Source of the DNA: Candidatus Omnitrophota bacterium
GTDB taxonomy: Bacteria > Omnitrophota > Gorgyraeia > Gygaellales > Profunditerraquicolaceae
Length of the DNA: 64,000 nt
Reading direction: 5' to 3'
NCBI GenBank assembly: GCA_017992455.1
Contig: JAGOOP010000004.1
Coordinates: forward strand, 24,567 to 88,566
This document shows positions 2,429-61,619 of the stretch, in pieces (positions within the stretch are counted from its first letter, which is position 1; each line of letters starts with the position of its first letter). Below the pieces are notes generated by a model. The model saw nothing but the letters and a program-made list of their open reading frames with translations, was not told the origin of the DNA and did not search any database. Both the position numbers and the translations under genes were made by a program.

Positions 2429-3526
2429 ATGAAGATCCTCAGAAATTATGTCATAAAAGAATTCCTCGGTCCGCTCATCGGGTCGCTTCTGGTCCTGACC
2501 TTTGTCATGATCCTGGGCAACCTCGTCAAGATCGCGGACCTCGTCATCAATAAAGGCGTCGATATACTGAGCGTCGTAAAACTTTTCCTGTTCATGATGC
2601 CGGCGCTCCTGACCTATACGGTCCCCATTGCGACGCTCGTCGCGGTGTTATTATCACTCGGCCGGCTTTCGGGCGACAACGAGATCGTGACCATGCGCGC
2701 AAGCGGCATCAACCTCGCTCATATCGTGATGCCGCTTCTGGTGATCGGGGCCGTCATGAGCCTGGTCCTCTTGATCTTCAACGACCGCATCGTGCCGTAC
2801 GCCCACTTTGCCCAGCGCAAGACCCTGGTGGACGTCGGGACCAAAAACCCCGCTGCGGCCCTGGAACCGGGCATATTCATCAACACGTTCGACAAATATA
2901 TCCTTTTCATCTACGCGATCGACGGCAACAGGCTCCAGAACGTCCGGATCTACGAGCCGCAGGGCGAGGACAAACCGACGCGGCTCATCATAGCGCGCCG
3001 GGGCGAGTTCATATCGGTCCCGGAGAGCAACATCGTCAAGCTCAAGCTCATGGACGGCACCGCCGATGAACCCGATCCCGATAATCCGAGCAATTTCTAT
3101 AAATTGAACTTCAAGACCTATTTCATGTCGCTGAACATCGCGCGCGCGCAATCAAAAGAGAATATCCTCAAAAAACCGAAAGATATGACCATCCGGGAGC
3201 TTGAAGCCGAGATGCGCGCTCTCCGGGCCCAGAAAATAGACCCGAGCCCGCTCGCCACCGAGGTCCATAAGAAGATATCGCTGGCGTTCTCGTGCCTGGT
3301 CTTCATACTCCTGGGCATGCCCATGGCGGTCATCACGCACCGGAGGGAAAAATCGATCAATTTCGGCATCGCATTCCTGATCGTGGGCGTGTATTATCTG
3401 CTCCTCCTGGGCTCGGAGGCGTTGAGCAGGCAGGGGTATCTCGACCCGCAGTTCGCCCTCTGGATACCGAACACGCTGTTCGGCCTGGCCGGCGGGATCC
3501 TCACCTATAAATTATGCGCATATTAG
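2429..3526 (+). CDS. lptF: LPS export ABC permease, LptF/LptG (YjgP/YjgQ) family
   Basis: 365 aa; hydrophobic N- and C-terminal blocks flanking a soluble central domain; MKILRNYVIKEFLGPL start typical of family; tandem with paralogue. Confidence 0.75.
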   Translation: MKILRNYVIKEFLGPLIGSLLVLTFVMILGNLVKIADLVINKGVDILSVVKLFLFMMPALLTYTVPIATLVAVLLSLGRLSGDNEIVTMRASGINLAHIVMPLLVIGAVMSLVLLIFNDRIVPYAHFAQRKTLVDVGTKNPAAALEPGIFINTFDKYILFIYAIDGNRLQNVRIYEPQGEDKPTRLIIARRGEFISVPESNIVKLKLMDGTADEPDPDNPSNFYKLNFKTYFMSLNIARAQSKENILKKPKDMTIRELEAEMRALRAQKIDPSPLATEVHKKISLAFSCLVFILLGMPMAVITHRREKSINFGIAFLIVGVYYLLLLGSEALSRQGYLDPQFALWIPNTLFGLAGGILTYKLCAY

Positions 3527-4620
3527 AGCGGTATATCCTCGGGTCGGTCTTTGTCATATTCTTCAGCTGCGCATTCACGTTCTTCTTCCTCTATATCATC
3601 ATCGACCTGTTCTCGCATCTTGACATGATCCTGAAGCAGGCGGTTTCCTGGGACGTCCTGCAACGTTATTATGCATCCTACCTGCCGATCATCTTCACCC
3701 AGGTCGCGCCCATCTCCTGCCTGCTTGCGAGCCTCTATACCTTTGCGCGCATGAACAAGGAGAACGAGATCATCGCCATGCGGTCGTCAGGATTGAGCAT
3801 CCTGCGGATAACGCGCGTGGTCATTGTATTCGGCATGATCGTGACCGGGGCCGTCTTCTGGGTCAACGACAGGATGGTGCCCCATGCGATGCTCGTCAGC
3901 AAGAAGATGCAGGAACAGATGGAAAGCGACACCGGAAAATCGCACAGCGATAAAAAAGGCCCGGACGTCATCATGGACTTCACCGTCTACGGCCTTCATA
4001 ACCGGCTTTTTTACATCAACAAGTTCTATCCGGCGGACAAAAAAATGATCGGCGTAACGGTGCTCGAGCATAACGAGAACCAGGACCTGCTCAGAAAGAC
4101 CGTTGCCTCTGCGGGGGAATATAAGGACGGGGTCTGGCACTTTTACCAAACGATCACCGACACATATGACGCCGACGGCAGGTCGATCGACGAGCATGTG
4201 TACAAGGAATTGGAAAGAATGCCGATCACCGAGACCCCGGAGGATTTTCTGGACCAGCGCCAGCATCCGGATTTCATGAACATCGCGCAACTGAAAGAAT
4301 ACATCTGGCGGCTTTCCAAAAGCGGCGCCACGACGGTCATCCGCAGCCTTCACATCGACCTGTACCAGCGCTATACGGCTCCGTTCACGAGCCTCATGAT
4401 CATCCTGCTGTCCATACCGTTCTCGCTGAAGATGAAAAAAAGAGCGACGGGGTTTTCGTCGCTCGGCCTGGCGCTTGTCGTCGGTTTCCTGTATTATATC
4501 TTGAATGCGGTCTCTATCGCCCTGGGCAAAGCCGGTATCCTGTTCCCGCTGTTGAGCGCTTCCCTCACCCACCTGACCGCGCTGTTCTACAGCCTCTACC
4601 TGATCAAAAAACTCCCGTAA
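3514..4620 (+). CDS. lptG: LPS export ABC permease, LptF/LptG family (second paralogue)
   Basis: 368 aa; MRILERYILGSVF start, same architecture; overlaps upstream paralogue by 13 nt. Confidence 0.75.
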   Translation: MRILERYILGSVFVIFFSCAFTFFFLYIIIDLFSHLDMILKQAVSWDVLQRYYASYLPIIFTQVAPISCLLASLYTFARMNKENEIIAMRSSGLSILRITRVVIVFGMIVTGAVFWVNDRMVPHAMLVSKKMQEQMESDTGKSHSDKKGPDVIMDFTVYGLHNRLFYINKFYPADKKMIGVTVLEHNENQDLLRKTVASAGEYKDGVWHFYQTITDTYDADGRSIDEHVYKELERMPITETPEDFLDQRQHPDFMNIAQLKEYIWRLSKSGATTVIRSLHIDLYQRYTAPFTSLMIILLSIPFSLKMKKRATGFSSLGLALVVGFLYYILNAVSIALGKAGILFPLLSASLTHLTALFYSLYLIKKLP

Positions 4621-4621: not shown

Positions 4622-4708
4622 AAAGGCTAAAAACGGGGTCAGAATTATTTATTTGTCCGCTGCGTGTATCGCCGCAAATAAATAATTCTGACCCCGTTTT
4701 TAGCCTTT
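4622..4708. repeat. family-1 palindromic repeat, complete copy (34-bp perfect arms, 19-nt loop); likely bidirectional terminator
   Basis: AAAGGCTAAAAACGGGGTCAGAATTATTTATTTG (4622-4655) / exact reverse complement 4675-4708; fills the whole convergent gap between lptG stop (4620) and alr stop (4711). Confidence 0.9.
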
Positions 4709-4710: not shown

Positions 4711-6120
4711 TTATTTGAGGAATTTGATGCCGCAGGCGTACATGCCGTTGTCCGCGGGACGCGTCCAGACCGCGGTACCCCTGACGCGCACGGGATCGCG
4801 GCCGCGTTTTTCCAGGCTCATCTGATAGGTCCGGTACGGCAGGACCGGGTCGGGCGTATAGAGCTTCATCCCGGCCGCGCTGATATCGCCGGTTACGCCC
4901 GCCGTATCTGCCAGCGACGGGGTATCGAGGAACCGCACCGGAATGGCCTCGGGACTGCGCTCAGAACGACGTTTTTCGGCAGGGGGCGCGGCTTTTTTGC
5001 GATACACGCGCGGCACCCTGCTGTTGATGCCGCAGACGATCTCATACGGTATCGTGCCCGACAATGAAGCGAGGGATTCGGCGCTGATGCGCCGTTTTTT
5101 TTGCGTACCGATCAGAACCGCTTCATCGCCCGGCCGGACCAAAGCATCCCCCACATCGACCATGACCTGGTCCATGCACACCCTGCCTGCGATCGTGAAT
5201 CGCCGCCCGTTGATCAATACCGGCCCGGTGTTGGACAAACTGCGGGGATATCCGTCCCCGTACCCGACCGGCAGCGTCGCGATCCGCGTCGCACGCCGCG
5301 TCACATAGGTATGCCCGTAACTGACGCCGGTGCCTGCGCGGACATCTTTGACGTATACGACGCGCGTTTTTAAAGACATCACCGGGCGGATGTCTGCCGG
5401 AAGGCCTTTGACAGGGCGCAGGCCGTACAGGATCAATCCGGGCCTGACCATGGTAAAATGGCTGTCCGGATACGAAATAATGCCCATACTGTTGGCCGCA
5501 TGGACGAGCGGAATGGAGATCGAGGCCTTTCGCAGGCGGCCGACGAGCCGGCCGAACAAACGGATCTGCCTGCGCGTGAGCACGTCGTCTGAGTCGGCGC
5601 AGGCCAGATGAGTGAATATCCCTTCGATGCGGATATTCGGCAGTGCAGAGATCCGCCTGACCGGACCGAACGCCTGGTCGTGCATGATGCCGATGCGCCC
5701 CATACCCGTGTCTACCTTGATATGGATATCAACGCCCTGGCCGCGAAGACATGCCTGGCGGGAGAGCGCTTTTGCGAAAGCGAACGAACACACGGTCGGC
5801 GTAATGCGATGATCGAGCAGCGCAGGTATATCCTCTTCGCGGACAAGGCCCAGGACAAGGATCCTTCTGTCGATACCTGCCCGGCGCAGACGGACCGCCT
5901 CGTCGACGGACGCGACCGCAAGGAAATCAGCGCCCGCATCGGCCAGCTCTTGGGAAACAGGGATGAGCCCGTGGCCGTAGGCCTCTGCCTTGACGCAGGC
6001 CATGACCTTGACCCCTTTTTTGATCCGCGCCCTGACCGCGCGGAGATTATGGGAAAGATTGTCGAGATCTATCTCTGCCCACGTCTGGCGGTACCCTCGA
6101 ATATCATGCTGATCCGTCAT
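4711..6120 (-). CDS. alr: alanine racemase fused to a C-terminal PilZ (c-di-GMP-binding type) domain
   Basis: ORF 4711..6165. PLP-lysine motif ACVKAEAYGHG and GVSYGHTY. C-terminal ~87 aa (about 4714-4974) carries RRSER (RxxxR) and DISAAG (DxSxxG). ATG 6120 forms an ATGA overlap with the tsaB stop. Confidence 0.85.
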   Translation of the reverse strand: MTDQHDIRGYRQTWAEIDLDNLSHNLRAVRARIKKGVKVMACVKAEAYGHGLIPVSQELADAGADFLAVASVDEAVRLRRAGIDRRILVLGLVREEDIPALLDHRITPTVCSFAFAKALSRQACLRGQGVDIHIKVDTGMGRIGIMHDQAFGPVRRISALPNIRIEGIFTHLACADSDDVLTRRQIRLFGRLVGRLRKASISIPLVHAANSMGIISYPDSHFTMVRPGLILYGLRPVKGLPADIRPVMSLKTRVVYVKDVRAGTGVSYGHTYVTRRATRIATLPVGYGDGYPRSLSNTGPVLINGRRFTIAGRVCMDQVMVDVGDALVRPGDEAVLIGTQKKRRISAESLASLSGTIPYEIVCGINSRVPRVYRKKAAPPAEKRRSERSPEAIPVRFLDTPSLADTAGVTGDISAAGMKLYTPDPVLPYRTYQMSLEKRGRDPVRVRGTAVWTRPADNGMYACGIKFLK

Positions 6121-6842
6121 TTCTTCCCTCGATCGCGTGTCGCGCGGCGGTTTCGCACCTGGCACTCCTGCGGATGAAGATATTCAGGCCCTATCCTGAA
6201 AGGATGCGCGGTTTTGTGAGCCTGTATCAGGCGCATCCCCAGGGCAATGAGCGGCTGCGGATGCGGATGCCAGAGCTCTTTATCGATGATGACAGCGCCG
6301 GGAAACGCCGCCCTGATGCGGGACGAACAGATCTCGGATCCGTCACCGCCTATAACGATCTTTTTTGACGCGCGGGACGCGCGCGTCCGGCCCAGGCGCC
6401 TGATAAACGCGTCGTAACCCAGAAGCTCGTCCGCCCCAACCCTGCGGACACAGCCCGCAGTTTTAGAAAACCACCCGCAATACAGCATGGCGCGGCGGGC
6501 GTCGATAACGGGAACAATGAGGCCGTCCGGGATCGCCGGATGGGACGCGATCGCCTCAAGGGTGGAAACCCCGGCGATCTTCCGCGCGTTGGCCCATGCC
6601 ATTGCCTTGACCGCGGCATGGCCGATGCGAAGCGCAGTGAACGATCCGGGGCCGAGCCCCAGAACATAATGCTCGATATCGCGCGGCTGCATCCCTGCCG
6701 CGCACAGCGCGCGCCCGATCGTCGGCACCAGTACGCGGGACAACGCGATCCCCGTATCCAGGACGTATTCGAACATGCGTTCGCCGTTGACGATGCCCAG
6801 ACAGAGGTATTTGCTCGAAGTGTCAAGCGCGAGTATCTTCAT
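6117..6842 (-). CDS. tsaB: tRNA t6A37 threonylcarbamoyltransferase complex dimerisation subunit TsaB
   Basis: MKILALDTSSKYLCLGIV N-terminus, ASKHA fold pattern; next to tsaE. Confidence 0.8.
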   Translation of the reverse strand: MKILALDTSSKYLCLGIVNGERMFEYVLDTGIALSRVLVPTIGRALCAAGMQPRDIEHYVLGLGPGSFTALRIGHAAVKAMAWANARKIAGVSTLEAIASHPAIPDGLIVPVIDARRAMLYCGWFSKTAGCVRRVGADELLGYDAFIRRLGRTRASRASKKIVIGGDGSEICSSRIRAAFPGAVIIDKELWHPHPQPLIALGMRLIQAHKTAHPFRIGPEYLHPQECQVRNRRATRDRGKK

Positions 6843-7290
6843 CGATCCTCTTCAAAACTTCCTTATATGCCGCGCCGACCGCGGTCACGCGGATCCTGCG
6901 CGTATTCCTGCCGGCCGGGCGCATCTCGACTTTCAAATACGCATCGGGAATAAGCGTTCCCATCTTCCCTGCCCATTCGATGACCGCAACGCCGTTATCG
7001 AACATATATTCTTCATACCCCAGGTCCTCGATCTGTCCCGCGTCCTGGATGCGGTAAAGATCGAAATGATACATGGGCATGCGGCCTTCATACCGGTGCA
7101 TCAGGACGAACGTCGGGCTGGTGACGCAGGCGCGGTCTATGCCCAGCCCGTGCGCGATCCCTTTTGCAAGAACGGTCTTTCCCGAACCGAGGTCCCCGAA
7201 CAGGCAGACGATATCGCCCGGCCGCGCATGGCGCGCGATGCGCCTGCCGAACCGCAGCGTATCCCTGACTGAACCGGAAACGATATGCAT
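6823..7290 (-). CDS. tsaE: tRNA t6A37 ATPase subunit TsaE
   Basis: 155 aa, P-loop GDLGSGKT, YHFDLYR motif. Confidence 0.85.
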   Translation of the reverse strand: MHIVSGSVRDTLRFGRRIARHARPGDIVCLFGDLGSGKTVLAKGIAHGLGIDRACVTSPTFVLMHRYEGRMPMYHFDLYRIQDAGQIEDLGYEEYMFDNGVAVIEWAGKMGTLIPDAYLKVEMRPAGRNTRRIRVTAVGAAYKEVLKRIDEDTRA

Positions 7291-7291
7291 G

Positions 7292-8185
7292 TTAAAAATG
7301 CCGGTATCCCGCGCGCGAAAGGCCGCGCACCCGTCCGCGTTTATCCACGATCGTATAGCCGCGTCTGCGCGCCACGATCTCGCCGATAGGCTTGAACGCG
7401 GCCGAGCCTTTCATAAGGCGCGACGCCTGCCTGCGGTCGAGCGTAAATATCAATTCGAAATCCTCTCCGTCCTCGAGCGCCCCCGCAAGGCCCCGGGCAT
7501 CTTTGCTGACGGGGATCATTTCCTCATACAGCACGGCTCCGGCGCGGCTCGCGTCGAGTATATGCCCCAGGTCCTGGCTCAATCCGTCCGAGCAATCGAT
7601 CATCGCCGAAGGCTTGAAGCTCTTTGTCAGGAACGCCGCTTCTTCGAGCCGGGGCTCGAAACGCAGATGCCTGCCTTTGATGGAACCGCCGAACTCGCCG
7701 GTCGCAAAAACGATATCGCCCGGCCGGGCGCCGCTGCGCAGAACGAGTTTTTTCTTTTCGACCTCTCCGATCACGCTGACGTCTATGACCAGCCGGGGGG
7801 AAGCGCTGATATCCCCTCCAACCACGGACACGGCATATTGCCCGGCTAACCGCGCGAGCCCGCGGTACAGCGCTTCGACCTGCGCGACGCGCGAGCGCTT
7901 CGGCAGACCGATCGTCACCAGGCACCAGCGCGGAACGCCGCCGCACGAGGCGATATCAGAAAGGGATACCGCAAGGGATTTTCTGCCGACAAGGGCCGGA
8001 TCGTCCGATGACTTGAAATCAACGCCTTCGACGAGCATATCGCAGGTGTATAACAGGTACGCGCCCCGCGTATACGGCAGGACCGCGCAATCGTCGCCGA
8101 TGCCCTGTATGACCGACCGGTCGGCAGGCGCGATCCTGCGGATGCGTTCGATCAGGCCGAATTCTCCGATGTTGCTTACAAGCAT
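7292..8185 (-). CDS. thiL: thiamine-monophosphate kinase
   Basis: GEFGLIERI...GIGDDCAVL N-terminus, AIR-synthase-related fold. Confidence 0.8.
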   Translation of the reverse strand: MLVSNIGEFGLIERIRRIAPADRSVIQGIGDDCAVLPYTRGAYLLYTCDMLVEGVDFKSSDDPALVGRKSLAVSLSDIASCGGVPRWCLVTIGLPKRSRVAQVEALYRGLARLAGQYAVSVVGGDISASPRLVIDVSVIGEVEKKKLVLRSGARPGDIVFATGEFGGSIKGRHLRFEPRLEEAAFLTKSFKPSAMIDCSDGLSQDLGHILDASRAGAVLYEEMIPVSKDARGLAGALEDGEDFELIFTLDRRQASRLMKGSAAFKPIGEIVARRRGYTIVDKRGRVRGLSRAGYRHF

Positions 8186-9282
8186 TTTTTAGACTGCGGC
8201 GCAGCACGCCGCGCTCCCCGCAATGGCAGAACGCTCGTCCCTTTGAGCATCGACGCGCGGATATTCTTGAGGTACGGCGGCCTGACAATGCCGCAGTCGG
8301 TGATGATCGCGGTGATCAGCCCGTGGTCCGTCACGTCGAAGGCCGGGTTGTACACGGCTACCCCGCCGGCTGCGATCGGTTTTTTGAAAAAAAGACGGGT
8401 GACTTCGTCCGCAGGCCGCTGTTCGATATCGATATCGCGCCCGCTTCGCGCGCGCAGGTCAAAGGTCGAGCTCGGCGCCGCGACGTAGAAAGGTATCCGG
8501 TGATGATGCGCGAGCACCGCAAGCGAGTATGTCCCTATTTTATTGGCGGTATCCCCGTTTGCCGCGATCCGGTCTGCGCCGGTTATCACCGCATCGACCG
8601 ATCCCTGACGCATGAGCGATGCCGCCATGCTGTCGCATATAAGCGTAACATCAATTCCCTTCTTTTTCAACTCCCATGACGTCAGCCGCGCTCCCTGCAA
8701 AAGGGGCCGCGTTTCGCACGCGAATACCCTGAAACGCCTGCCCTGCTCCCGGGCGCGATACAATACTCCCAGCGCAGTGCCGTAGTCGATAGTCGCCAGT
8801 ATCCCGGCATTGCATACCGTCAATACGGAGAAGCCGTTTTTGATCAGGGGCGCGCCGGATCTGCCGATCCTGCGGCAGGTCTGCCGGTCTTCCTCGATGA
8901 TCAGCATCGCTTCTTTGAACAAAAGCCGCTTGATCTGCGCGATACTCTGGCGGCGGTTTGCGACCGCGACCGACGCCATGCGCTCAAGGCCCCAGAAAAG
9001 GTTCCGTGCCGTAGGCCGCGATGTGCCGAGATACCGGATCACGCGGTCCATCTGCGAAGCGAATTCCCGGTACGTTTTTGCGCCTGAATCCTTGATGCCC
9101 AGGTACACGCCCAGACCTGCCGCAGCCCCGAGCGCAGGAGCGCCCCGGACCTGAAGGACCCTGATCGCATGCCAGAGGCAGCGCAGGTCCCTGATATACA
9201 CGCGGCGCAGTTCAGCCGGCAGGCGCGTCTGGTCGATGATCCTGATCGCATTGCCCGCCCATTCGATCGTGCGCAGATTCAA
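8176..9282 (-). CDS. mtnA: S-methyl-5-thioribose-1-phosphate isomerase (eIF-2B alpha/beta/delta family)
   Basis: IRIIDQTRLP, VRGAPALG, VITGADRIAANGDTANKIGTY motifs. Confidence 0.8.
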   Translation of the reverse strand: MNLRTIEWAGNAIRIIDQTRLPAELRRVYIRDLRCLWHAIRVLQVRGAPALGAAAGLGVYLGIKDSGAKTYREFASQMDRVIRYLGTSRPTARNLFWGLERMASVAVANRRQSIAQIKRLLFKEAMLIIEEDRQTCRRIGRSGAPLIKNGFSVLTVCNAGILATIDYGTALGVLYRAREQGRRFRVFACETRPLLQGARLTSWELKKKGIDVTLICDSMAASLMRQGSVDAVITGADRIAANGDTANKIGTYSLAVLAHHHRIPFYVAAPSSTFDLRARSGRDIDIEQRPADEVTRLFFKKPIAAGGVAVYNPAFDVTDHGLITAIITDCGIVRPPYLKNIRASMLKGTSVLPLRGARRAAPQSKKCL

Positions 9283-9881
9283 GTCCCTCTCCTTTCAAGT
9301 TCCGAGATGCGCCGGACGATCTGCTTCCTGATACCCCGGCACTGGCCCGGTTTCAGAAGCGCCAGGACGGTCCGGTATGAGGCAAGCGCGCCGTCGTTGT
9401 CCCCGAGATTCATCTGAGCGTCGGCGAGATTATCATACGTCACCGCCCGCCCGGGCTCAAGCTCCAGCGCCGTGTAAAAACAGCCGATCGCCTCGGTATG
9501 CCTGCCGATATTGTTCAGGAGCCATCCTTTATTATGATAGATCGTGGCGTAATCCGGCTCAGCCGCGATGCCGCGGTCGAAAAAAGGCATTGCCCCGTCT
9601 ATAAGGCCGATCTCCACCATGCACAAAGCCCGGTCGTTGAACGCCGCGCCGTCATGCGGGTTGAGCGCGATCGCGCGATCGAGATGCTCGATCGCGGTGA
9701 CAAAGTTGCCGCGTATGATCTGGACCTGCGCCCTGAAATATTCCGCCTCTGCCGCGGCGCGGGCATCCTGCGCGGCCCGCAATCCCCGTCGGGCAAGCGC
9801 CAGGGCCTGCTTTTGCGTGCCGTAGGTGATCGCGTCATCGAGCTCTTTGCGCAGTACGGGGAAAAAAGCGTGTTTAGACAT
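9279..9881 (-). CDS. tetratricopeptide-repeat protein
   Basis: ORF 9279..9971; repeated A-x-x-Y/F-x-x-A-L-x-L-x-P helices; trimmed to ATG 9881 (MSKHAFF) just past tatD stop. Confidence 0.6.
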   Translation of the reverse strand: MSKHAFFPVLRKELDDAITYGTQKQALALARRGLRAAQDARAAAEAEYFRAQVQIIRGNFVTAIEHLDRAIALNPHDGAAFNDRALCMVEIGLIDGAMPFFDRGIAAEPDYATIYHNKGWLLNNIGRHTEAIGCFYTALELEPGRAVTYDNLADAQMNLGDNDGALASYRTVLALLKPGQCRGIRKQIVRRISELERRGT

Positions 9882-10659
9882 CGAGCGAAAAGAACCTGAC
9901 CGCATTCTGCGTCGTTGCCCGGCAGATATCCTCGAACGGAACGTTGCGCAGTCCCGCGACCGTTTCCGCAAGCAGGCGGACCGAAGCGGGCTCGTTGCGC
10001 TTTCCGCGCGATCCTTCGGGAGACAGATACGGGGCGTCGGTCTCGAGGAACAGACGGTCGAGCGGAACGATCGCGGCCAGATCGCGCAGGCCCTGGGATC
10101 TTTTATACGTTATGTTGCACGTAAAAGAGATATAAAAACCCATGTCCAGGCAATCGCGCATGAAACGCTCATCGCCCGAGAAACAATGGACGACGGCGCG
10201 CTCCAGCTTTTCCTCCCTGACGATGCGCAGGGTATCTTCCGCCGCCTGCCGGGTATGGATCACAACAGGCAGGTCCAGGTCCTGCGCCATGCGGATGAAC
10301 GATACGAACAGCCGCTGCTGGCTGTCCTGCGGGGAGAGATTGCGGTAATAATCGAGGCCGATCTCTCCGATGGCAACGACCTTGTCCGCGGCGGCAAGCG
10401 ACCGGACCTGCGCGAGGTCGCTGTCGCTGAAATCCCTGGCGTCATGCGGATGGCAGCCGACCACGGCGTACACATTCGGGTATTTTTTTGCAAGATCGAC
10501 GGAATTGACCGAACCCTCAAGGCTGGAACCGATATTGATGATGCGCCGCACGCCCTGCGCTTCGGCCCTGCGGATGACCTCGCCGCGGTCGGCGTCGTAA
10601 TCGTGAAAGTCGATATGGGCATGCGTATCTATCAGTTCGACGTCGGTCTGCAGTGGCAT
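9874..10659 (-). CDS. tatD: TatD-family metal-dependent hydrolase/DNase
   Basis: LIDTHAHIDFH metal motif, 261 aa TIM-barrel size. Confidence 0.85.
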   Translation of the reverse strand: MPLQTDVELIDTHAHIDFHDYDADRGEVIRRAEAQGVRRIINIGSSLEGSVNSVDLAKKYPNVYAVVGCHPHDARDFSDSDLAQVRSLAAADKVVAIGEIGLDYYRNLSPQDSQQRLFVSFIRMAQDLDLPVVIHTRQAAEDTLRIVREEKLERAVVHCFSGDERFMRDCLDMGFYISFTCNITYKRSQGLRDLAAIVPLDRLFLETDAPYLSPEGSRGKRNEPASVRLLAETVAGLRNVPFEDICRATTQNAVRFFSLDV

Positions 10660-10666
10660 GATCGTG

Positions 10667-12205
10667 CTATTTCTTTTCCGTGCGTTTTTTGCCGTCCGTT
10701 TCTATCCGCGGGAACAGCGGCGCGCCTTTGGCGATCGTGTCCCGGCCGAGCTGTTCTTTGATTGACCGCGCGGTCCCGGGCATGAACGGCTCGATAAGCG
10801 ATCCGGCCGTTCGTATCACTTCCACCAAAAGCCGCATGAACGCCCGGAGCTGTTCGTCCTTGCTTTCTTTTGCCAGGTTCCACGGCTTGGTCTCTTCGAC
10901 ATATTTATTCGCCATATTGATAAGCCCCCAGAGCTGTTCGAGCGCGGCTGAAAAATTCGCGTCCTGCGCAGGCGATAACGACTGTTCCATCAGTCCGTCG
11001 ATCTCGCCGATCAGGCGGACGATCTCGGCACCGCGTTCGTCGAACCGGTACGCGCCGATATCGACCGCGGGGACATTGCCGTTATAATATTTTTCGACCA
11101 TGGTCAGCGTCCGGAACACGAGATTCCCCAGGTCATTGGCGAGATCTCCGTTGAACCGCTTGACGATGGCCTCCTCGGAAAAGTTTCCGTCAAGGCCGAA
11201 GGGCACCTCCCGGACGAGAAAATACCGGTAGACGTCGACCCCGTATTTCTTCGACATGTCAAGGGGCGCGACGACATTGCCGCGGGATTTGGACATCTTC
11301 GCGTCGTTGATGAGCCACCAGCCGTGGACGAGAAGGCTGTGCGGCGGCTCGATGCCGAGCGCGCGGAGCATGATGGGCCAATAGATGGCATGCTGGCGCA
11401 GGATATCCTTTGCCATGAGCTGAACGTCGGCCGGCCACCATTTCGACCGGTATACGCCGTCCGCATCGAACTCTCCGACCGCGCTGATATAATTGATCAG
11501 CGCGTCGAACCAGACATAGGTGACATGGCCGGGCGAGAACGGCAGCGGGATCCCCCATGACAGCCGCTCCTTCGGACGGGAAATACACAGATCGGTCAGC
11601 GTGTTCTGCCTCAGGAAGCTCAACACTTCGTTGCGCCTGATCACGGGACGCACGAAATCAGGATGTTCTTCGATGTACGAGATGAGCCAGTCCTGGTATT
11701 TCGAAAGCCTGAAGAAAAAATTCTGCTCCGCGATGTGCTCGACCGGCCGCCGGCAGTCGGGGCACAGCTTGTCGACCGCCTGCTCTTCGGTCCAGAAGCT
11801 CTCGCAGGGAGAACAATACCATCCTTCATACGTCGACTGATAGATATCGCCCTTTTGATACACGATCTCAAGCACGCGGCGGACGAATTGCTTGTGGCGT
11901 TCTTCCGTCGTGCGGATAAAATCGTCATATGAGATACCGAGATCCGCCCACAGGTCTTTGAATTTCCGGGCGATGCCGTCGGCAAAGGCCTGCGGTTCGA
12001 TGCCGGCTTGCGCCGCGGCCCGTTGTATCTTCTGCCCGTGCTCGTCGGTGCCGGTCAGAAACCAGACGCGGCCCGCCCCGAGGGACCGGCGCATCCGCCG
12101 CGCGAGGATATCGGCGGCGATCGTCGTATATGAATGGCCGATATGCGGCTCGGCGTTCACGTAATACAGCGGCGTCGTTATGTAGAATTTCTTATCCATC
12201 GTCAC
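10667..12205 (-). CDS. metG: methionine--tRNA ligase (short form)
   Basis: PHIGHSYTT (HIGH) and KMSKSRGN (KMSKS) motifs. Confidence 0.9.
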   Translation of the reverse strand: MTMDKKFYITTPLYYVNAEPHIGHSYTTIAADILARRMRRSLGAGRVWFLTGTDEHGQKIQRAAAQAGIEPQAFADGIARKFKDLWADLGISYDDFIRTTEERHKQFVRRVLEIVYQKGDIYQSTYEGWYCSPCESFWTEEQAVDKLCPDCRRPVEHIAEQNFFFRLSKYQDWLISYIEEHPDFVRPVIRRNEVLSFLRQNTLTDLCISRPKERLSWGIPLPFSPGHVTYVWFDALINYISAVGEFDADGVYRSKWWPADVQLMAKDILRQHAIYWPIMLRALGIEPPHSLLVHGWWLINDAKMSKSRGNVVAPLDMSKKYGVDVYRYFLVREVPFGLDGNFSEEAIVKRFNGDLANDLGNLVFRTLTMVEKYYNGNVPAVDIGAYRFDERGAEIVRLIGEIDGLMEQSLSPAQDANFSAALEQLWGLINMANKYVEETKPWNLAKESKDEQLRAFMRLLVEVIRTAGSLIEPFMPGTARSIKEQLGRDTIAKGAPLFPRIETDGKKRTEKK

Positions 12206-12984
12206 TTGTACTGGACCTCGGCCTGCGTTCCGTCCTCCTGCTCGACCATGACCGTGCGCTTGAACACGTTGACGCTGACGACCTTGCCCTTGACGTTGTT
12301 GACGGAGATACGCTCTCCCTCGCGCGGCAGCCCTTTGGCCAGGACCTTATAGGTCCCGTATTCATAGTTCAGGCAGCACATGAGCCTGCCGCAGATGCCC
12401 GAGATCTTGGGCGTGTTGAGCGGAAGCCCCTCTTCCTTTGCCATCTTGATGGTCACCGGCTCGAAATCCTTTAAGAACGTCGCGCAGCACAGCTCCCTGC
12501 CGCACGGCCCGAAACCGCCGAAGAACCGCGTTTCGTCCCGCACGCCGATCTGCCGCAGCTCGATGCGCGCCTTGAATATCTTGGCGAGGTCCTTGACAAG
12601 GTCGCGGAAATCGACCCGGCCGTTCGAGGTGAAATAGAACACGATCTTGCTGCGGTCGAAGGAATATTCAGCCTGCACCAGCTTCATCTCCAGCTTGTGC
12701 TCGTCGATCTTGCGGGAACAGGTGTTAAATGCCTCTTTCGACTTTGCGCGGTTCTCCTCGATCCGTTTCAGGTCATCTGCCTGCGCAATGCGCAATATCT
12801 TTTTGACCGGCGGTTTCTCTCCCGCAGCGGGAGGGATCTGCTTGAGCGAAACGACCTGGCCGTAATCGTGGCCGCGGTCGTGTTCGACGATGACGTAATC
12901 GCCTTCCTTGACCTGACAATCACCGGGATAATAGGGGAACGTCTGGCCCGTATCCCGCAATCGCACGCATATTGTATTTTCCAT
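12202..12984 (-). CDS. ricT: PSP1-domain protein (RicT/YaaT-like)
   Basis: 260 aa; cysteine cluster CGRELCCATFL ... CGRLMCCLNYE typical of PSP1/YaaT; follows holB as in Firmicutes. Confidence 0.75.
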   Translation of the reverse strand: MENTICVRLRDTGQTFPYYPGDCQVKEGDYVIVEHDRGHDYGQVVSLKQIPPAAGEKPPVKKILRIAQADDLKRIEENRAKSKEAFNTCSRKIDEHKLEMKLVQAEYSFDRSKIVFYFTSNGRVDFRDLVKDLAKIFKARIELRQIGVRDETRFFGGFGPCGRELCCATFLKDFEPVTIKMAKEEGLPLNTPKISGICGRLMCCLNYEYGTYKVLAKGLPREGERISVNNVKGKVVSVNVFKRTVMVEQEDGTQAEVQYK

Positions 12985-13002
12985 ATCACGCCTCTCTTAT
13001 GA

Positions 13003-14022
13003 TCACGCCGGAGGCGACTGCCTGCACCCGGCGATCATATTCGATACCAGTAATTTCTTGTTCACGTTGCGCCCCACGTTCAGGGCTGATTCGGATAAAA
13101 GATCGAAAATGCGGTCGAGGTCCGCGAATGAATACCTCCGCGCGCCCTCCGCAAGCTCTGCGGCACGGTCCGCATGGATGAGCTCCTGCCCTCCGGCGCC
13201 GGTCTTGAGCAGATATATGTCCCTGAACCACGACGCCAGGATGCTGAAACTGGCGCTCAAGTCCTGACGCGAGGCCGCCGGGACCGGGTCGTCGAGCCGC
13301 CTGCCGCTGTCGCAGAACAGGTCGATGATCTTGTTCTTTTCTTCGAAAATGCCGCGTTCCTTCAGCTTCAACGCCGCGCCCAGGCTCCCCTCGGAAAAGA
13401 ACGCGAGAAAATGCGCCTCTTTCGGGCTGCAGGCTGCGCCGCCTTCCCTCGGCCGGCGCAGCGTCTGCTCAAGCGCACTGCGGGATAAGGGATAGAACTT
13501 CACCATCCTGCACCGCGACAGGATCGTCGGCAGCAGCAGCGAGCGCCGGTCGGTGATCAGGATGATCACGCTGTCTGACGGAGGTTCTTCCAGTGTTTTC
13601 AAGAATGCATTGGCGGATTCAAGGTTCAGCTCATGCGCATTGTTGATGATGAACACTTTTTTACGGCCCTCATACGGCCGGTAATTGATATCCTCCTGCA
13701 GCTGGCGGATCTGCGCGATGCGTATCTGGCCGGGCTCTTCCGGATCCTTGTCCGCTGCGCCGCCCGGCGCGGCGGATGAATCGACGATATGCACGTCCGG
13801 ATGCGCATCTTTATCGATCTTCCGGCAGGACACGCACTCGTCACAGCCGGATGCGCCGGGCGTCAGGCAATTGAGCGCTTTGGCAAAGGCAGCCGCAGTC
13901 AGCGCTTTGCCCACGCCCGCAGGGCCGGTGAAAAGATACGCGCCGTCGGCGGCTGCGGTACCGATATATCCTTTCAGCCTGCCGACCGCTTTCTCCTGTC
14001 CGATAATATCGCCGAATGTCAT
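13003..14022 (-). CDS. holB: DNA polymerase III subunit delta-prime
   Basis: GPAGVGKALTA P-loop-like, zinc module CDECVSC, SRC motif (ILSRCRMV). Confidence 0.8.
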   Translation of the reverse strand: MTFGDIIGQEKAVGRLKGYIGTAAADGAYLFTGPAGVGKALTAAAFAKALNCLTPGASGCDECVSCRKIDKDAHPDVHIVDSSAAPGGAADKDPEEPGQIRIAQIRQLQEDINYRPYEGRKKVFIINNAHELNLESANAFLKTLEEPPSDSVIILITDRRSLLLPTILSRCRMVKFYPLSRSALEQTLRRPREGGAACSPKEAHFLAFFSEGSLGAALKLKERGIFEEKNKIIDLFCDSGRRLDDPVPAASRQDLSASFSILASWFRDIYLLKTGAGGQELIHADRAAELAEGARRYSFADLDRIFDLLSESALNVGRNVNKKLLVSNMIAGCRQSPPA

Positions 14023-14651
14023 ATGCGGTACTTACGCCTCTGTAACAAAGCCGTCACTTCCGCGCGGACGGCCGCCTGTGTCCGGTCTTTATCCGCAGCG
14101 ACCTTCACGATCCTGAAGCGGCGCGGCTCGGACCGCGCCAGTGCCATATATCCGCGCCTGACCCGCGCGTGGTAGGCGAAATCGCGCCTCTCGATACGGT
14201 CCTTGCGCGCTCCGATATTGCCGAGCGCTTTTTTTAACGGCAGATCGAGCAGGAGGGTCAGGTCGGGCTTGATGGCCGACGTTGCGAACGACCCGAGCGA
14301 CCGGATGAGCTTCACGTTCATGCCGAGGCCGCAGCCCTGATACACGACCGTTGAATCGAGGAACCGGTCGCATAAAACGATCGCCCCGCCTGCAAGCGCA
14401 GGCTTGATGACCTCTTCCACGGTCTGGCAGCGGCTGGCCATGTAAAGCAATAATTCGGTGCCTGCCGCCATTGCCGCGTTGGACGGGTCCAGGAGGATAT
14501 TCCTGATCATTTCGCTGATATGCGTGCCTCCCGGCTCGCGCAGATAAACCACCGTGCAGCCCTGCTTGATCAAATGGTCATACAGGAGCCTCGACTGCGT
14601 GCTTTTGCCGCAGCGCTCCGAACCTTCGAATGTGATGAACACACCTTTCAC
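14019..14651 (-). CDS. tmk: dTMP (thymidylate) kinase
   Basis: ORF 14019..14720; P-loop FEGSERCGKST; start moved to GTG 14651 (AGGAG + 6 nt upstream), longer ORF reads through the 26-bp stem element. Confidence 0.85.
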   Translation of the reverse strand: MKGVFITFEGSERCGKSTQSRLLYDHLIKQGCTVVYLREPGGTHISEMIRNILLDPSNAAMAAGTELLLYMASRCQTVEEVIKPALAGGAIVLCDRFLDSTVVYQGCGLGMNVKLIRSLGSFATSAIKPDLTLLLDLPLKKALGNIGARKDRIERRDFAYHARVRRGYMALARSEPRRFRIVKVAADKDRTQAAVRAEVTALLQRRKYRI

Positions 14652-14671
14652 ATGGAACTCCTGGTATTGGG

Positions 14672-14825
14672 CGGGCTGTGTGGGTGCCTTCTCAGGGCAT
14701 GTGAAGCCCCGAGCGGGCACGGATCACCCGCAATCTAAATGCTCAGTGAGAGCGAGGGGCGGAACTGAGTGAGCCGGCCTCGCAGGGGCCGGCGAACGTC
14801 CCTGAGAAGGCACCCACACAGCCCG
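14672..14825. other. 154-nt structured intergenic element: 26-bp perfect closing inverted repeat around three small hairpins
   Basis: CGGGCTGTGTGGGTGCCTTCTCAGGG (14672-14697) = exact reverse complement of 14800-14825. Inner stems at 14713-17/14727-31, 14742-47/14764-69 and 14773-79/14787-93. Lies 7 nt after the cysS stop and 20 nt before the tmk start. Confidence 0.8.
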
Positions 14826-14832
14826 GCCATTC

Positions 14833-16239
14833 CTATAATTTCCTGCGCCAGGTGGTGCCGTCCTTCGTGTCCTCAAGGATGACGCCCCTCGCTTCAAGCG
14901 ATGCCCGGATACCGTCGGATTCCTTGAACTTTTTCGCCGCCTTGTATCGCGCGCGCTCGGCGATCAATGCCCGCACTTCTTCATCAGGTACGCCGCCGGA
15001 TACGCGCGCCTGGAACGACAACCCGAAAATGGCCGCGATCTCTTTTATGAAACCGGCCGCGGACGCCAGTTTCTGCGCCTGTCCGCCGTTGTCCGCTCCG
15101 TCAAGGACCTTGTTGCAGGCGGTCACGACGTCGAAAAGAACGGACAGTCCCCGCGGGGTATTAAAATCGTCGTCCATGAACCGCAGGAACTGCTCTTTGA
15201 ACGGCGCGCAGAAATCATCCGCGCCCGGATCGGCGCCCGCGCGTTCATCGCCGAGCCTGCTCAAAAGGGTTGTGATACGCTCGTATGCCTGCGTCGCCTC
15301 CTCCATCTTCTTATCGGAAAAATCGATGGGGCTGGAATAGTGAGCCTGTAAGAAGAATATTTTGAGCACATCCGGGTGATATTTCTTAAGCGCTTCCTTG
15401 ATCGTGATAAAATTCCCAAGGGATTTCGACATTTTCTGGCCGTTGATGGTCAGAAGGCCGTGATGGATCCAGTGCGTGGCGAACGACTTCCCGGTCAAGG
15501 CCTCTGCCTGCGCGATCTCGTTCTCGTGATGCGGGAATATGAGATCGCGGCCGCCGGCGTGAATATCGATCGTATCGCTTTCGAGGTATTTCATCGACAT
15601 GACCGAACATTCGATGTGCCAGCCTGGTCTGCCCGGTCCCCAGGGGCTCTCCCATGAGGGTTCGCCCGGCTTCGACGCCTTCCAGAGCGCGAAATCGAGC
15701 GGATCGCGCTTGTTCTCGTCGGAATCCTTGCGCACGCCCGTGAGCATCGCTTCGATGCTCTGGCCCGAGAGTTTCCCGTAGGACGAGAACTTCCGCACGT
15801 TGAAATACACGCCTGTCCCGGTCACGTAGGCGTACTTTTTTTCGATAAGCTTTTCTATATGCGCGATCATCCCGGGGATGTTCTCCGTCGCGCGCGGCTC
15901 GATATCGGCCCGGGGGATCCCGAGCGCCTTCATGTCTTCGTAATACCGCTCGATATATCTGGCCACGAGCCCTTTCCAATCGGCCTGCAATTCATTCGCG
16001 CGGTTGATGATCTTATCGTCGATATCGGTGATGTTGCGCACGAACAGGACGTCATACCCGCGGTACGACAGATACCGGCGTATCACCTCGAATATATAGA
16101 GGCTCCGCGCGTGGCCGATATGGCAGTCGTCATACACGGTCACCCCGCACGAATACATGGTAAGCCGGGGCGCTGCCTGCACGGCGAGCGCTTCCTTCTT
16201 TTGCGTAAGTGAATTATAAATGGTCAGCGGCGCGGGCAT
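14833..16239 (-). CDS. cysS: cysteine--tRNA ligase
   Basis: CHIGHARS (HIGH) and KMSKSLGN motifs; ATG 16239 (MPAPLTIYNSL) preferred, alternative 16287. Confidence 0.9.
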   Translation of the reverse strand: MPAPLTIYNSLTQKKEALAVQAAPRLTMYSCGVTVYDDCHIGHARSLYIFEVIRRYLSYRGYDVLFVRNITDIDDKIINRANELQADWKGLVARYIERYYEDMKALGIPRADIEPRATENIPGMIAHIEKLIEKKYAYVTGTGVYFNVRKFSSYGKLSGQSIEAMLTGVRKDSDENKRDPLDFALWKASKPGEPSWESPWGPGRPGWHIECSVMSMKYLESDTIDIHAGGRDLIFPHHENEIAQAEALTGKSFATHWIHHGLLTINGQKMSKSLGNFITIKEALKKYHPDVLKIFFLQAHYSSPIDFSDKKMEEATQAYERITTLLSRLGDERAGADPGADDFCAPFKEQFLRFMDDDFNTPRGLSVLFDVVTACNKVLDGADNGGQAQKLASAAGFIKEIAAIFGLSFQARVSGGVPDEEVRALIAERARYKAAKKFKESDGIRASLEARGVILEDTKDGTTWRRKL

Positions 16240-16243
16240 AGGT

Positions 16244-16927
16244 TCATTTCTTCTTTTCAAGTTGTTCGATGCGTTTCTCAAGCTCATCGATCGTCTGCAT
16301 CAGGGGATCGAGGATATGGATATGGTCGAGCGAGATGTCGATCTTGCGGCCTTCCTGCCTGGTGATCCGGCCCGGGACGCCGACAACGGTCGAATTCTGG
16401 GGAACATCCTTGATGACAACGGCGTTGGCGCCGATATACGCGTTATCGCCGACAATGATATTGCCGAGCACCTTGGCGCCCGCGCCGATGACCACGTTAT
16501 TGCCGATGGTCGGATGGCGCTTGCCTTTTTCAAGCCCCGTGCCGCCGAGGGTAACGCCCTGGTACAGGAGAACATCGTCGCCGATGACCGCCGTTTCCCC
16601 GATCACGACCCCCATGCCGTGATCGATGAAAAAACGCTTGCCGATCCGGGCGCCCGGATGGATCTCGATCCCGGTCATGGAACGCGCACACTGGCTGACG
16701 GCCCGCGCGATAAAGAACAGGCCCCGCTCGTAAAAAAAGTGAGCGATGCGGTTATAGATGAGCGCATGGAGCCCCTGGTACAAAAGCACGACCTCCAGCA
16801 CGCTGCGGACCGCCGGGTCGCGCTTTTGGATCGTCCGGATCTCATCGGTGAAGACCGTCGATATGATAAAAAGCTTCAGGATGAACAGGACTGCAAGGAC
16901 CAGGATGACCGCCAGTATCGTGATCAC
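16244..16927 (-). CDS. cysE: serine O-acetyltransferase with hydrophobic N-terminal extension
   Basis: [13 protein letters not shown], hexapeptide repeats [11 protein letters not shown]...[13 protein letters not shown]...; only in-frame start is GTG 16927, giving [23 protein letters not shown]. Confidence 0.85.
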
Positions 16928-20483: not shown

Positions 20484-20516
20484 CGTGATGACCGCGCGGG
20501 CGTGTTTATCGGGCGT

Positions 20517-21206: not shown

Positions 21207-21225
21207 GTCTGCCTCCGTAGTATGA

Positions 21226-22774: not shown

Positions 22775-22781
<7 letters not shown>
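21993..22781 (-). CDS. mlaE: ABC transporter permease (MlaE-like)
   Basis: 262-aa polytopic permease, overlaps mlaF by 4 nt. Confidence 0.75.
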
Positions 22782-25192
<2,411 letters not shown>

Positions 25193-25219
25193 AGGTCCTC
25201 TCCTTAAGAAAGCTTTGAT

Positions 25220-26269: not shown

Positions 26270-26272
26270 GCG

Positions 26273-36736: not shown

Positions 36737-36803
36737 TATATTTTTTTCTATACCCCTTGTTCCGCAATGTGTTGTGACGCCCTTTGATGTGATATGAAAT
36801 TTG

Positions 36804-36831
36804 TTGCCTGCGCATGGATTTTTGTTATAAT
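36804..36831 (+). promoter_or_regulatory. sigma70 promoter for PilZ gene (TTGCCT-16-TGtTATAAT, extended -10)
   Basis: TTGCCT 36804-36809; TATAAT 36826-36831 preceded by TGT. Confidence 0.5.
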
Positions 36832-36859
36832 ATCCCTGAGCACAAACACGGAGGCGTTT

Positions 36860-37147
36860 ATGCAGGAAAGACGCAAAACCGGCAGGTTACCGCGCCAGGA
36901 ACGGACGTTCATCGAGCACGGTGCAGGAAAAAAAGAAACCATCCTTCTTGACATCAGTATCGGCGGCATGCGCGTCCAGCTTGATGAAGCCATGAAAGTC
37001 GGCACTCCGCTGACGCTCAAAGCCAGCATCCTGCCCCACGCAGGCGCCTTCTTTATGGCAGGGACCGTGACCTGGGTCAAAGAAAGCTCTCCCGGCGTTT
37101 ACGAAACCGGCGTCAAATTCAACAAAGTAAGCACCATACCGCTCTAA
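36860..37147 (+). CDS. stand-alone PilZ-domain protein
   Basis: ORF 36794..37147; ATG 36860 after GGAGG; RRKTGR (RRxxxR) and DISIGG (DxSxxG). Confidence 0.8.
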   Translation: MQERRKTGRLPRQERTFIEHGAGKKETILLDISIGGMRVQLDEAMKVGTPLTLKASILPHAGAFFMAGTVTWVKESSPGVYETGVKFNKVSTIPL

Positions 37148-54040: not shown

Positions 54041-54044
54041 ACCG

Positions 54045-60326: not shown

Positions 60327-61619
60327 TTACACGCGCCTCGCCGCGGATGCAGCAGCCATGATGGTCTTTTTAAGGTCCTGCTCCGTATGCGCGAACGAAA
60401 AAAAGTTCGCCTCGAACTGGGACGGCGCGGTATAGATGCCGCTCTCAAGCATTGCCCCGAAGAAACGGGCGTACGCTTTCGTATCCGATGATCTCGCCGA
60501 CGCGTAATCACGGACACGCGCGCCGGTGAAAAAAACCGTGAACATGGATCCGGCGCGGTTGATCACAGCACGGACCCCGCTTCGTTTGAGAATATCCTCG
60601 ATCACCCGGCACAGTTCGGTCGTATCCGCATTGAGCCGGGTGTAATCCTTGTCCTGAAGCGCTTTCAGCACGGCGATGCCTGCGGCGACCGCAACGGGAT
60701 TGCCCGACAGGGTCCCTGCCTGATATACCTTTCCCGCCGGAGAAAGGTGATCCATGATCTCTTTCCTGCCCCCGTAGGCGGCCAGCGGCATGCCTCCTCC
60801 GATGATCTTGCCCAGGCACGTCAGGTCGGGCTCGATGCCGAACAGGCTCTGCACGCCGCCGTAGGTAAAACGGAACCCGCTGATGACCTCGTCGAAGATC
60901 AGCACGATCCCGTATTTGCGCGTCACTTCCCGCAGGGCTGCAAGGAACCCCGGATCAGGCAATATAACGCCCATGTTCGCCGCAACGGGCTCCACGATGA
61001 CCGCGGCGATCTCTTTATGCTTCGAACGCACGATGCGGCTGACCGCGTCGATATCATTATACGCGCACACGATCGTGTCCCTGCTCGTGCCGGCCGTCAC
61101 GCCGAGCGAATCCGGGACGCCGAAGGTGGCTCCGCCGGAACCCGCCTTGACCAGAAGGCTGTCGCTGTGGCCGTGATAACATCCTTCGAATTTCAGGATC
61201 TTGTCCCTGCCCGTGGCTCCGCGCGCGAGCCTGATCGCCGACATCGCGGCTTCCGTGCCGGAATTGACCAGCCGTATTTTCTCCATCGAGGGAACGGCGC
61301 GGCAGAGGATCTGCGCGAACAGCGTCTCGTTCCCGGTCGGAGCGCCGAATGACATGCCGCGTCCCGCCGCTTTCCTTACCGCCTCGACGATAGAAGGATA
61401 TGCGTGGCCGAGAACGAGCGCGCCCCACGACATGCAATAATCGACATACCGATCATTATCGGCATCGACGAGATGGCTGCCGGAACCCTGTTTCATGAAC
61501 ACCGGCCCGCCGCCGACCGCCCCGAACGCGCGCACCGGGCTGTTCACTCCGCCGACGAGCACCTCACAGGCCCGTTCGTACAATCCCTTTGACTGTTTAC
61601 CGCGCGCTCTTTTTTTCAT
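60327..61619 (-). CDS. hemL: glutamate-1-semialdehyde 2,1-aminomutase
   Basis: GGVNSPVRAF, class-III aminotransferase; ORF start 61652 or ATG 61619, both overlap PilZ 3' end. Confidence 0.9.
   Translation of the reverse strand: MKKRARGKQSKGLYERACEVLVGGVNSPVRAFGAVGGGPVFMKQGSGSHLVDADNDRYVDYCMSWGALVLGHAYPSIVEAVRKAAGRGMSFGAPTGNETLFAQILCRAVPSMEKIRLVNSGTEAAMSAIRLARGATGRDKILKFEGCYHGHSDSLLVKAGSGGATFGVPDSLGVTAGTSRDTIVCAYNDIDAVSRIVRSKHKEIAAVIVEPVAANMGVILPDPGFLAALREVTRKYGIVLIFDEVISGFRFTYGGVQSLFGIEPDLTCLGKIIGGGMPLAAYGGRKEIMDHLSPAGKVYQAGTLSGNPVAVAAGIAVLKALQDKDYTRLNADTTELCRVIEDILKRSGVRAVINRAGSMFTVFFTGARVRDYASARSSDTKAYARFFGAMLESGIYTAPSQFEANFFSFAHTEQDLKKTIMAAASAARRV

Follow-up and report, generated by a model that had tools for sequence, protein, structure and literature searches.

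The gene examined here lies in a stretch of 64,000 nucleotides from a Candidatus Omnitrophota genome (contig JAGOOP010000004.1; hereafter the window, by which we mean this whole stretch of DNA), and it joins a complete alanine racemase (Alr) to a C-terminal PilZ domain within a single open reading frame (ORF). The gene, which we refer to as alr-pilZ, is read from the minus strand, and its ORF runs uninterrupted from an ATG at 6120 to a TAA stop codon at 4711-4713. Its parts are laid out as follows, with pyridoxal 5'-phosphate abbreviated as PLP, cyclic di-GMP as c-di-GMP, AlphaFold2 as AF2, its predicted local distance difference test as pLDDT, and target- and query-normalised template modelling scores as TMt and TMq.

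4711..6120, minus strand: alr-pilZ coding sequence, 469 amino acids plus TAA stop; exact product on 20 contigs
5413..6072, minus strand: alanine racemase N-terminal PLP-binding barrel, residues 17-236 (Pfam PF01168, E 2.9e-73; Foldseek TMt 0.79-0.89 to solved Alr)
5002..5382, minus strand: alanine racemase C-terminal beta domain, residues 247-373 (Pfam PF00842, E 1.8e-51)
5989..5991, minus strand: codon of K44, the PLP-binding lysine in ACVKAEAYGHG, invariant in 21/21 aligned sequences
5317..5319, minus strand: codon of Y268, the second catalytic base in GVSYGHTY, invariant in 21/21 aligned sequences
4972..5001, minus strand: inter-domain linker RKKAAPPAEK, residues 374-383 (AF2 pLDDT below 50 for residues 377-384)
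4714..4971, minus strand: PilZ domain, residues 384-469, a six-stranded barrel without C-terminal helix (Pfam PF07238, AF2 and Foldseek)
4957..4971, minus strand: RxxxR motif (RRSER, R384-R388), the first c-di-GMP-binding motif, invariant in 17/17 fusions
4870..4887, minus strand: DxSxxG motif (DISAAG, D412-G417), invariant in 17/17 fusions

A mechanical ORF list had extended the gene to a GTG at 6165. This codon lies inside tsaB, the gene immediately upstream, and is used as a start by no homologue; the fused homologue P0001 begins MTDQHD, as does the product read from 6120. We therefore prefer the ATG at 6120, 3 nt upstream of which GAGGGAAG is located.

Racemase and PilZ parts of the fused product

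The racemase part is complete and retains all of its catalytic residues, and it is predicted to be active. It matches the NCBIfam equivalog model for alr (TIGR00492) over its full length, with 397.4 bits against a cutoff of 168, and the models for VanT, DadX and MurF-Alr all score below their own cutoffs. The residues K44, R142, H171, R226, Y268, M316, D317 and Y359, whose catalytic roles are assigned from the established literature on the Geobacillus enzyme, are invariant in 21 aligned sequences, fused and unfused alike. The AF2 model of the full-length protein (mean pLDDT 81.5) places barrel and beta domain in the two-domain Alr fold and superposes on 4Y2W, 1SFT, 1XFC and others with TMt of 0.79-0.89 over approximately 372-383 columns; the product shares 41% identity with the T. 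tengcongensis enzyme (4Y2W). Of the solved sequences of the Alr family, 47/47 align only up to query residues 357-376, and none carries a tail of the kind described below.

The remainder of the protein is a PilZ domain. Pfam PF07238 matches residues 382-468; against a gathering cutoff of 22.5 bits, the score is 39.3 for the whole protein and 42.4 for the tail by itself, and precomputed matches to the same family are recorded in 16/16 fused homologues. The second motif of PilZ proteins has been defined as [D/N]hSxxG, with a hydrophobic second residue, lying 20-30 residues after RxxxR (10.1101/814665); the tail agrees with this definition, including the hydrophobic residue and the spacing. Across the 17 full-length fusions the tails are only 23-95% identical; both motifs are nevertheless invariant, and the offset between them is a constant 28 residues from start to start. 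Within DxSxxG the D, S and G do not vary and the second position is I, M or V; W452 and G464 are likewise invariant in the fusion tails, and both motifs are also present in three Alr-PilZ fragments. Given the HMM (hidden Markov model) scores together with this conservation among homologues, a chance origin of the motifs is excluded. The original prediction, made from the letters of the sequence, had described a complete alanine racemase in one ORF (with ACVKAEAYGHG and GVSYGHTY) followed, after an Ala/Pro linker, by a PilZ domain. Both parts passed their Pfam and NCBIfam comparisons, and the two PilZ motifs are where they had been placed, with the small correction that they stand 28 rather than about 29 residues apart.

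Structural comparison gives the same assignment. Modelled alone, the tail forms six strands (pLDDT 87.9), and the top 43 matches of this model in a Foldseek search against the PDB are all PilZ structures, most of them with bound c-di-GMP; they include BcsA 4P00, 4XRN, Alg44 4RT0, MapZ 5XLY, YcgR 5Y6G, MotI 5VX6 and PA0012 8U0I, and TMq is 0.67-0.75 for the best 23. The sole PDB match by sequence is 4I86 (BcsA). The window protein continues for only two residues beyond strand 6, with Pfam matching profile positions 1-86 of 102; more distant members of the family are extended by 10-35 residues. The 85-residue PA0012 (8U0I), which has a TMt of 0.80 to the tail model, was crystallised with c-di-GMP, which indicates that a short PilZ barrel can bind. 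PilZ domains in fusion proteins have been said to 'invariably retain' c-di-GMP binding (Galperin and Chou, 10.1101/814665). We consider it probable that the tail, too, binds c-di-GMP.

The tail also appears to be maintained. Between the window gene and its 74%-identical orthologue P0002, the ratio of nonsynonymous to synonymous substitution rates (dN/dS, by the Nei-Gojobori method) comes to 0.159 in the PilZ part and to 0.150 in the Alr core, values that are indicative only because dS, at approximately 1.1-1.3, is close to saturation. So read, they point to purifying selection on the PilZ tail as strong as that on the racemase. The spacer that separates RxxxR from the last residue of the Alr domain varies from 7 to 24 residues across the fused homologues, which speaks for a genuine evolving tether and not for an artefact at the join.

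Distribution, origin and genomic position of the fusion

The fusion is real and conserved. The identical 469-residue product occurs on 20 independently assembled contigs from NCBI metagenome-assembled genomes (MAGs), JGI and ENA, among them the MAGs GCA_035343315.1 and GCA_029573915.1, JGI 3300010353 and ENA ERZ27257502, and the neighbouring genes are the same in the four places where they were compared. Among 5.8 billion protein clusters, 16 more full-length proteins with Alr and PilZ domains were found, their identity ranging from 97% to 50%, and all of them that are named belong to Candidatus Omnitrophota/Omnitrophica; the other best matches were unfused racemases of approximately 373 residues, mostly from the same phylum. 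An exhaustive HMM search of 1.84 billion representatives with a profile of the tail gave five matches below 1e-30, namely the fusion P0002, the contig-truncated Alr-PilZ fragments P0132, P0134 and P0135, and one PilZ-PilZ protein. The architecture is thus present in at least 19 distinct sequences besides the window protein, all from Candidatus Omnitrophota, and the fused orthologues come from NCBI, ENA, JGI and Logan sources. Among the best 150 of 7761 PilZ matches to the tail profile there was no Alr-PilZ protein outside this Omnitrophota family, and the fusion is, as far as seen, limited to one lineage of the phylum.

Other searches added less. A word-indexed search with the tail profile returned 11 weak stand-alone PilZ proteins and no known family member, and the exhaustive HMM search was used in its place. 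A scan of metagenome contigs with eight closer tails found four loci, one of them a family member identical to P0008. Finally, a scan of genome contigs with the fusion alignment ran on the generic Alr peptides KA[ED]AYGHG and CMDQ[IVM]MVD and is uninformative on the spread of the fusion and on a second alr; among the at least 600 matches listed were only unfused racemases of unrelated phyla.

In a neighbour-joining tree built from the Alr core of 121 sequences, the 17 fusions and one unfused protein, P0013, form one clade of 18, with 92% bootstrap for its inner 12 members and only 22% for the whole; the topology is consistent with a single origin of the fusion. P0013 (locus L085, 504-1823) carries a 64-residue, non-PilZ C-terminal extension. 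We considered and rejected the possibility that it is a decayed fusion. Since the extension has no DxSxxG and reaches 168 nt into the convergent gene, the most probable explanation is read-through after loss of a stop codon, or else a gene-calling artefact.

No donor pilZ gene was identified, the nearest free PilZ being approximately 25% identical. P0133 appeared at 133 bits but was dismissed as a donor: it consists of two PilZ domains, both of which contribute to the score, and is only 26% identical to the tail. Such PilZ-only and PilZ-PilZ proteins of Omnitrophota and other bacteria are the closest relatives of the tail outside the fusion family; they share approximately 25% identity with it, and none has an Alr domain. 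Near relatives of the tail occur in other unusual combinations. P0147 (510 residues) combines two PilZ domains with a FeeM-type N-acyl amino acid synthase, and P0264 (939 residues) combines three with an Hsp70 domain. On an 82-kb metagenome contig (L094, 2228-2704), a stand-alone PilZ-like ORF ends in VVWTRPASNGMFVTGFRFLL, a sequence much like that with which the window tail ends, AVWTRPADNGMYACGIKFLK. It too lacks the C-terminal helix and contains NISSAG with no clear RxxxR, and it may be a distant relative of the fused module.

The genes that surround alr-pilZ, and the sequence that separates it from its convergent neighbour, are the following.

6117..6842, minus strand: tsaB (Pfam TsaD family in matching loci)
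6117..16287, minus strand: co-directional housekeeping array ending in alr-pilZ, comprising cysS, tmk, holB, PSP1, metG, tatD, TPR, mtnA, thiL, tsaE and tsaB
3514..4620, plus strand: lptG-like permease, convergent, bounding the 3' end of the fusion (Pfam LptF_LptG in matching loci)
4622..4708, no strand assigned: perfect 34-nt inverted repeat with a 19-nt loop, between convergent alr-pilZ and lptG (RNA fold -57.1 kcal/mol, z = -11.8)

The TGA of tsaB and the ATG of alr-pilZ overlap as ATGA at 6117-6120, in keeping with the earlier proposal that the gene is translationally coupled to tsaB at the end of a long housekeeping array. A 56%-identical orthologue locus (L086) has the same array order without metG. 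Furthermore, the order thiL-tsaE-tsaB-alr, convergent with lptG-lptF-comF, recurs in every locus examined, whether fused (the window, P0001, P0002, P0008/L093, P0012, P0022 and, on a short contig from tsaB onward, P0036) or unfused (P0118). As the fused gene occupies the same slot as the unfused alr, it is the positional orthologue of the normal housekeeping gene, to which approximately 290 bp coding for PilZ have been added at the 3' end, in the gap before lptG. This shared slot also supports the original prediction that the gene is probably the organism's main alr. There is no second alr within the 64-kb window, nor is there a D-amino-acid transaminase in it: the only class IV aminotransferase (26843-27739), which we considered as an alternative route to D-alanine, is IlvE.

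The inverted repeat at 4622..4708 is a probable bidirectional terminator. It belongs to a dispersed, AT-rich, palindromic intergenic element that is also found at 1429-1518, 48680-48700 and 58425-58485, and its arm GGGGTCAGAATTATTTATTTG occurs seven times with up to three mismatches where none is expected. The element is present in contigs of the same species and in a 97%-identical strain (L092) and in none of the other fetched loci, more distant orthologue loci included. It looks like a family of repetitive extragenic palindrome (REP)-like or bidirectional-terminator repeats. In locus L086, a very large gene begins approximately 9 kb from alr-pilZ (20121-21452); its product, of at least 1764 residues, runs off the locus and has ROK and HEAT_2 matches, and it recalls the giant genes reported in Omnitrophota.

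c-di-GMP as a candidate regulator of D-alanine synthesis

As a second messenger, c-di-GMP controls motility, exopolysaccharide secretion, adhesion and the cell cycle. The architecture described here suggests that it may also control the supply of D-alanine for the cell wall, and may do so directly. The original prediction had likewise put forward, as hypotheses, either such control or localisation of the enzyme by c-di-GMP. From the sequence, a syntenic housekeeping racemase with an acquired C-terminal PilZ domain would be a cis-acting c-di-GMP switch on D-alanine synthesis, the reading that we favour, though we judge its chances to be evenly balanced. We hold with the same moderate confidence that c-di-GMP would directly modulate racemase activity, and put forward more tentatively that it may tune the catalytic output of what would be the cell's only alanine racemase.

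Such a switch would begin with binding of c-di-GMP by the PilZ tail. The RxxxR loop of PilZ proteins wraps around the ligand, and in the fusion RxxxR is part of the flexible tether and follows the last Alr strand at a distance of only 10 residues. Because this loop is itself the tether between the domains, binding should shorten it and reposition the barrel: the ligand would rigidify the tether, dock the barrel onto the racemase and so change its activity. Y359, which we take to be the equivalent of Geobacillus Y354 and to line the substrate entryway, is only 14 residues from the end of the Alr domain, and alanine racemase is active only as a dimer. These two circumstances make gating of the active-site entryway, on the one hand, and a shift in dimer equilibrium or stability, on the other, plausible routes. 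Production of D-alanine, and with it the supply of peptidoglycan precursors, would then follow the level of c-di-GMP post-translationally, with the ligand acting either as an activator or as an inhibitor. The gene comes last, probably by translational coupling, in an 11-gene housekeeping array (cysS to tsaB) that is presumably a constitutive operon; as gene-specific transcriptional control looks unlikely there, a post-translational switch is perhaps the simplest way to regulate alr alone.

Several observations weigh against this proposal. The long C-terminal helix of the canonical PilZ domain, as defined by Galperin and Chou, is absent. The Alr core shows no clade-specific docking patch, its only clade-specific substitutions being seven conservative ones, and no information on inter-domain contacts could be extracted from the monomer model. 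Moreover, neither a diguanylate cyclase (GGDEF) nor a phosphodiesterase (EAL or HD-GYP) gene was found in the window by a motif scan and by Pfam comparison of 48 further ORFs, with precomputed annotation of matching contigs covering the first 21 kb; for the phylum, the literature reports GGDEF domains and an abundance of small pilZ genes (10.1101/2023.11.21.568195).

The main rival is c-di-GMP-dependent recruitment, whereby the PilZ domain would bind its ligand but serve as a localisation or interaction adaptor that brings the racemase, for example, to Ddl, to MurF, to the divisome or to a site of attachment or at the pole, and catalysis would be unchanged. PilZ proteins do often act through ligand-dependent protein contacts, as with MapZ and CheR1 (5XLY), YcgR or MotI and the flagellar motor, and YcgR and SpeA. 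A long, variable linker of low model confidence would suit a tethered adaptor, and the lack of any clade-specific surface change on the core leaves intramolecular docking without a signpost. However, the product of the racemase is a small molecule that diffuses freely, and for this reason the benefit of localisation is less obvious. The window protein also lacks the C-terminal helix, which Galperin and Chou, citing MapZ-CheR, regard as the prime candidate for PilZ interactions, and no candidate partner gene is linked to the locus. We accordingly think recruitment unlikely, if well short of negligible.

It is improbable that the tail has ceased to signal and persists as a structural appendage, serving stability, solubility or oligomerisation, or binds another ligand. 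Not every domain with the PilZ fold binds c-di-GMP (Galperin and Chou, 10.1101/814665), and both the missing canonical helix and the lack of a c-di-GMP turnover gene in the window would fit such a tail. Yet non-binding PilZ domains characteristically lose RxxxR and/or DxSxxG (10.1101/814665), both of which are invariant here at a spacing that is fixed in 17 sequences with tails down to 23% identity; in addition, the statement that PilZ domains of fusion proteins 'invariably retain' binding (Galperin and Chou, 10.1101/814665) and the 85-residue PA0012 with its ligand (TMt 0.80 to the model) both speak against this reading. Lastly, alr might have been joined to a neighbouring pilZ artificially, by a frameshift or in a chimeric assembly, both of which the original prediction had itself allowed for, or through loss of a stop codon. 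This explanation has no direct support beyond the P0013 extension, which shows that read-through extensions occur in the family, and its chance is vanishingly small, being ruled out by the identical product on 20 contigs of independent assemblies, by the retention of the fusion, with linkers of variable length, in orthologues at 50-97% identity from NCBI, ENA, JGI and Logan, and by the purifying selection on the tail.

Two further PilZ proteins, both stand-alone, above the Pfam threshold and with intact motifs, are encoded elsewhere in the window and are additional candidate receptors of c-di-GMP.

36794..37147, plus strand: stand-alone PilZ protein between CheW and a methyl-accepting chemotaxis protein (MCP) (Pfam PilZ 47.3 bits; RKTGR...DISIGG)
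61597..62106, minus strand: second stand-alone PilZ protein (Pfam PilZ 42.4 bits; RKYKR...DVSAGG)

The first has cheW (36089-36604) and an MCP gene (37287-39041) as its neighbours, with a second MCP gene at 33899-36049, and by analogy with MapZ or Tlp1-type receptors it may be a c-di-GMP input to chemotaxis. The second, whose likely start is the internal MEERRKYKR, lies between hemL (60327-61652) and genes resembling siroheme decarboxylase and NirJ2/AhbD (61977-63972). Directly downstream of the gene for the 716-residue MCP, a 163-residue ORF on the minus strand (33354-33845) matches only the middle of Cache_3-Cache_2 (profile positions 63-183 of 299), and may be a split or truncated sensor gene. 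A response regulator of 305 residues (53345-54262) has its REC domain at residues 79-190, with flanks of approximately 78 and 115 residues that match nothing, and three further ORFs, of 469, 431 and 231 residues (51512-52921, minus strand; 54445-55740, plus strand; 58503-59198, minus strand), match no family of Pfam or NCBIfam significantly. Three genes in a row on the minus strand (22775-26824) encode a ClpC-type AAA+ protein, an ATP:guanido phosphotransferase (a McsB-like protein arginine kinase) and a UVR-motif protein (McsA-like); this McsAB-ClpC module is of Gram-positive style, and the same Omnitrophota genome also has Lpt and Mla outer-membrane genes.

Novelty and relation to known systems

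A PilZ-racemase fusion is not described in the full-text literature that we searched, from which subscription journals are mostly missing, or in the PilZ survey of Galperin and Chou, a result that agrees with the earlier statement that no characterised Alr-PilZ fusion was known. Database entries name all members of the family simply 'alanine racemase', so that the PilZ fusion is invisible in current annotation. While the type of sensor fusion is known, the racemase is new as its output domain, and it would add a PLP enzyme of central metabolism to the repertoire of PilZ outputs. In the literature searched we likewise found no description of a direct link from c-di-GMP to the cytoplasmic synthesis of peptidoglycan precursors, a link that a racemase carrying its own c-di-GMP sensor would supply. 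If the proposal holds, this would be the first amino-acid racemase gated by a second messenger, and a direct post-translational checkpoint through which lifestyle decisions made by c-di-GMP, such as attachment and motility, would set the rate of precursor supply, possibly extending to the host-associated or predatory habits proposed for Omnitrophota. The product is a single soluble protein, open to expression and assay although its source has not been cultivated; it would offer one concrete physiological clue to signalling in this phylum, and a natural scaffold for ligand-switchable racemases.

Alr modules joined to other domains are known from the VanT serine racemase (NF033132) and from MurF-Alr (NF008897), and both of these models align to query residues 12-374. 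Their additional parts are N-terminal, a membrane domain or a second enzyme, whereas that of the fusion is a C-terminal second-messenger sensor. The product scores 230 against a cutoff of 900 for NF033132 and 335 against 804 for NF008897, so far beneath both that it is a member of neither family.

The closest analogue in cis is BcsA cellulose synthase (4P00, 4HG6, 5EJ1), likewise an enzyme with a C-terminal PilZ domain in which RxxxR and DxSxxG are intact; no structure matched the tail better (E 2.5e-5, TMq 0.71). In BcsA, binding of c-di-GMP relieves autoinhibition of the catalytic site. The two differ in that BcsA is a membrane glycosyltransferase making an exopolysaccharide, whereas the fusion would be a soluble, dimeric PLP racemase of central cell-wall metabolism; BcsA also keeps the C-terminal helix that the tail of the fusion lacks.

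The closest functional analogue brings together a PilZ protein and an enzyme akin to Alr. The decarboxylase SpeA and Alr share PLP fold-type III and the architecture of barrel and beta domain. In Dickeya oryzae, the PLP enzyme SpeA gains activity when YcgR binds to it, and this gain is abolished by c-di-GMP (PMC12239582). There, as is proposed for the fusion, a PilZ protein directly modulates a PLP-dependent amino-acid enzyme; YcgR, however, acts in trans, and on a decarboxylase for polyamine synthesis, whereas in the fusion the PilZ domain is covalently bound to the racemase that it may regulate.

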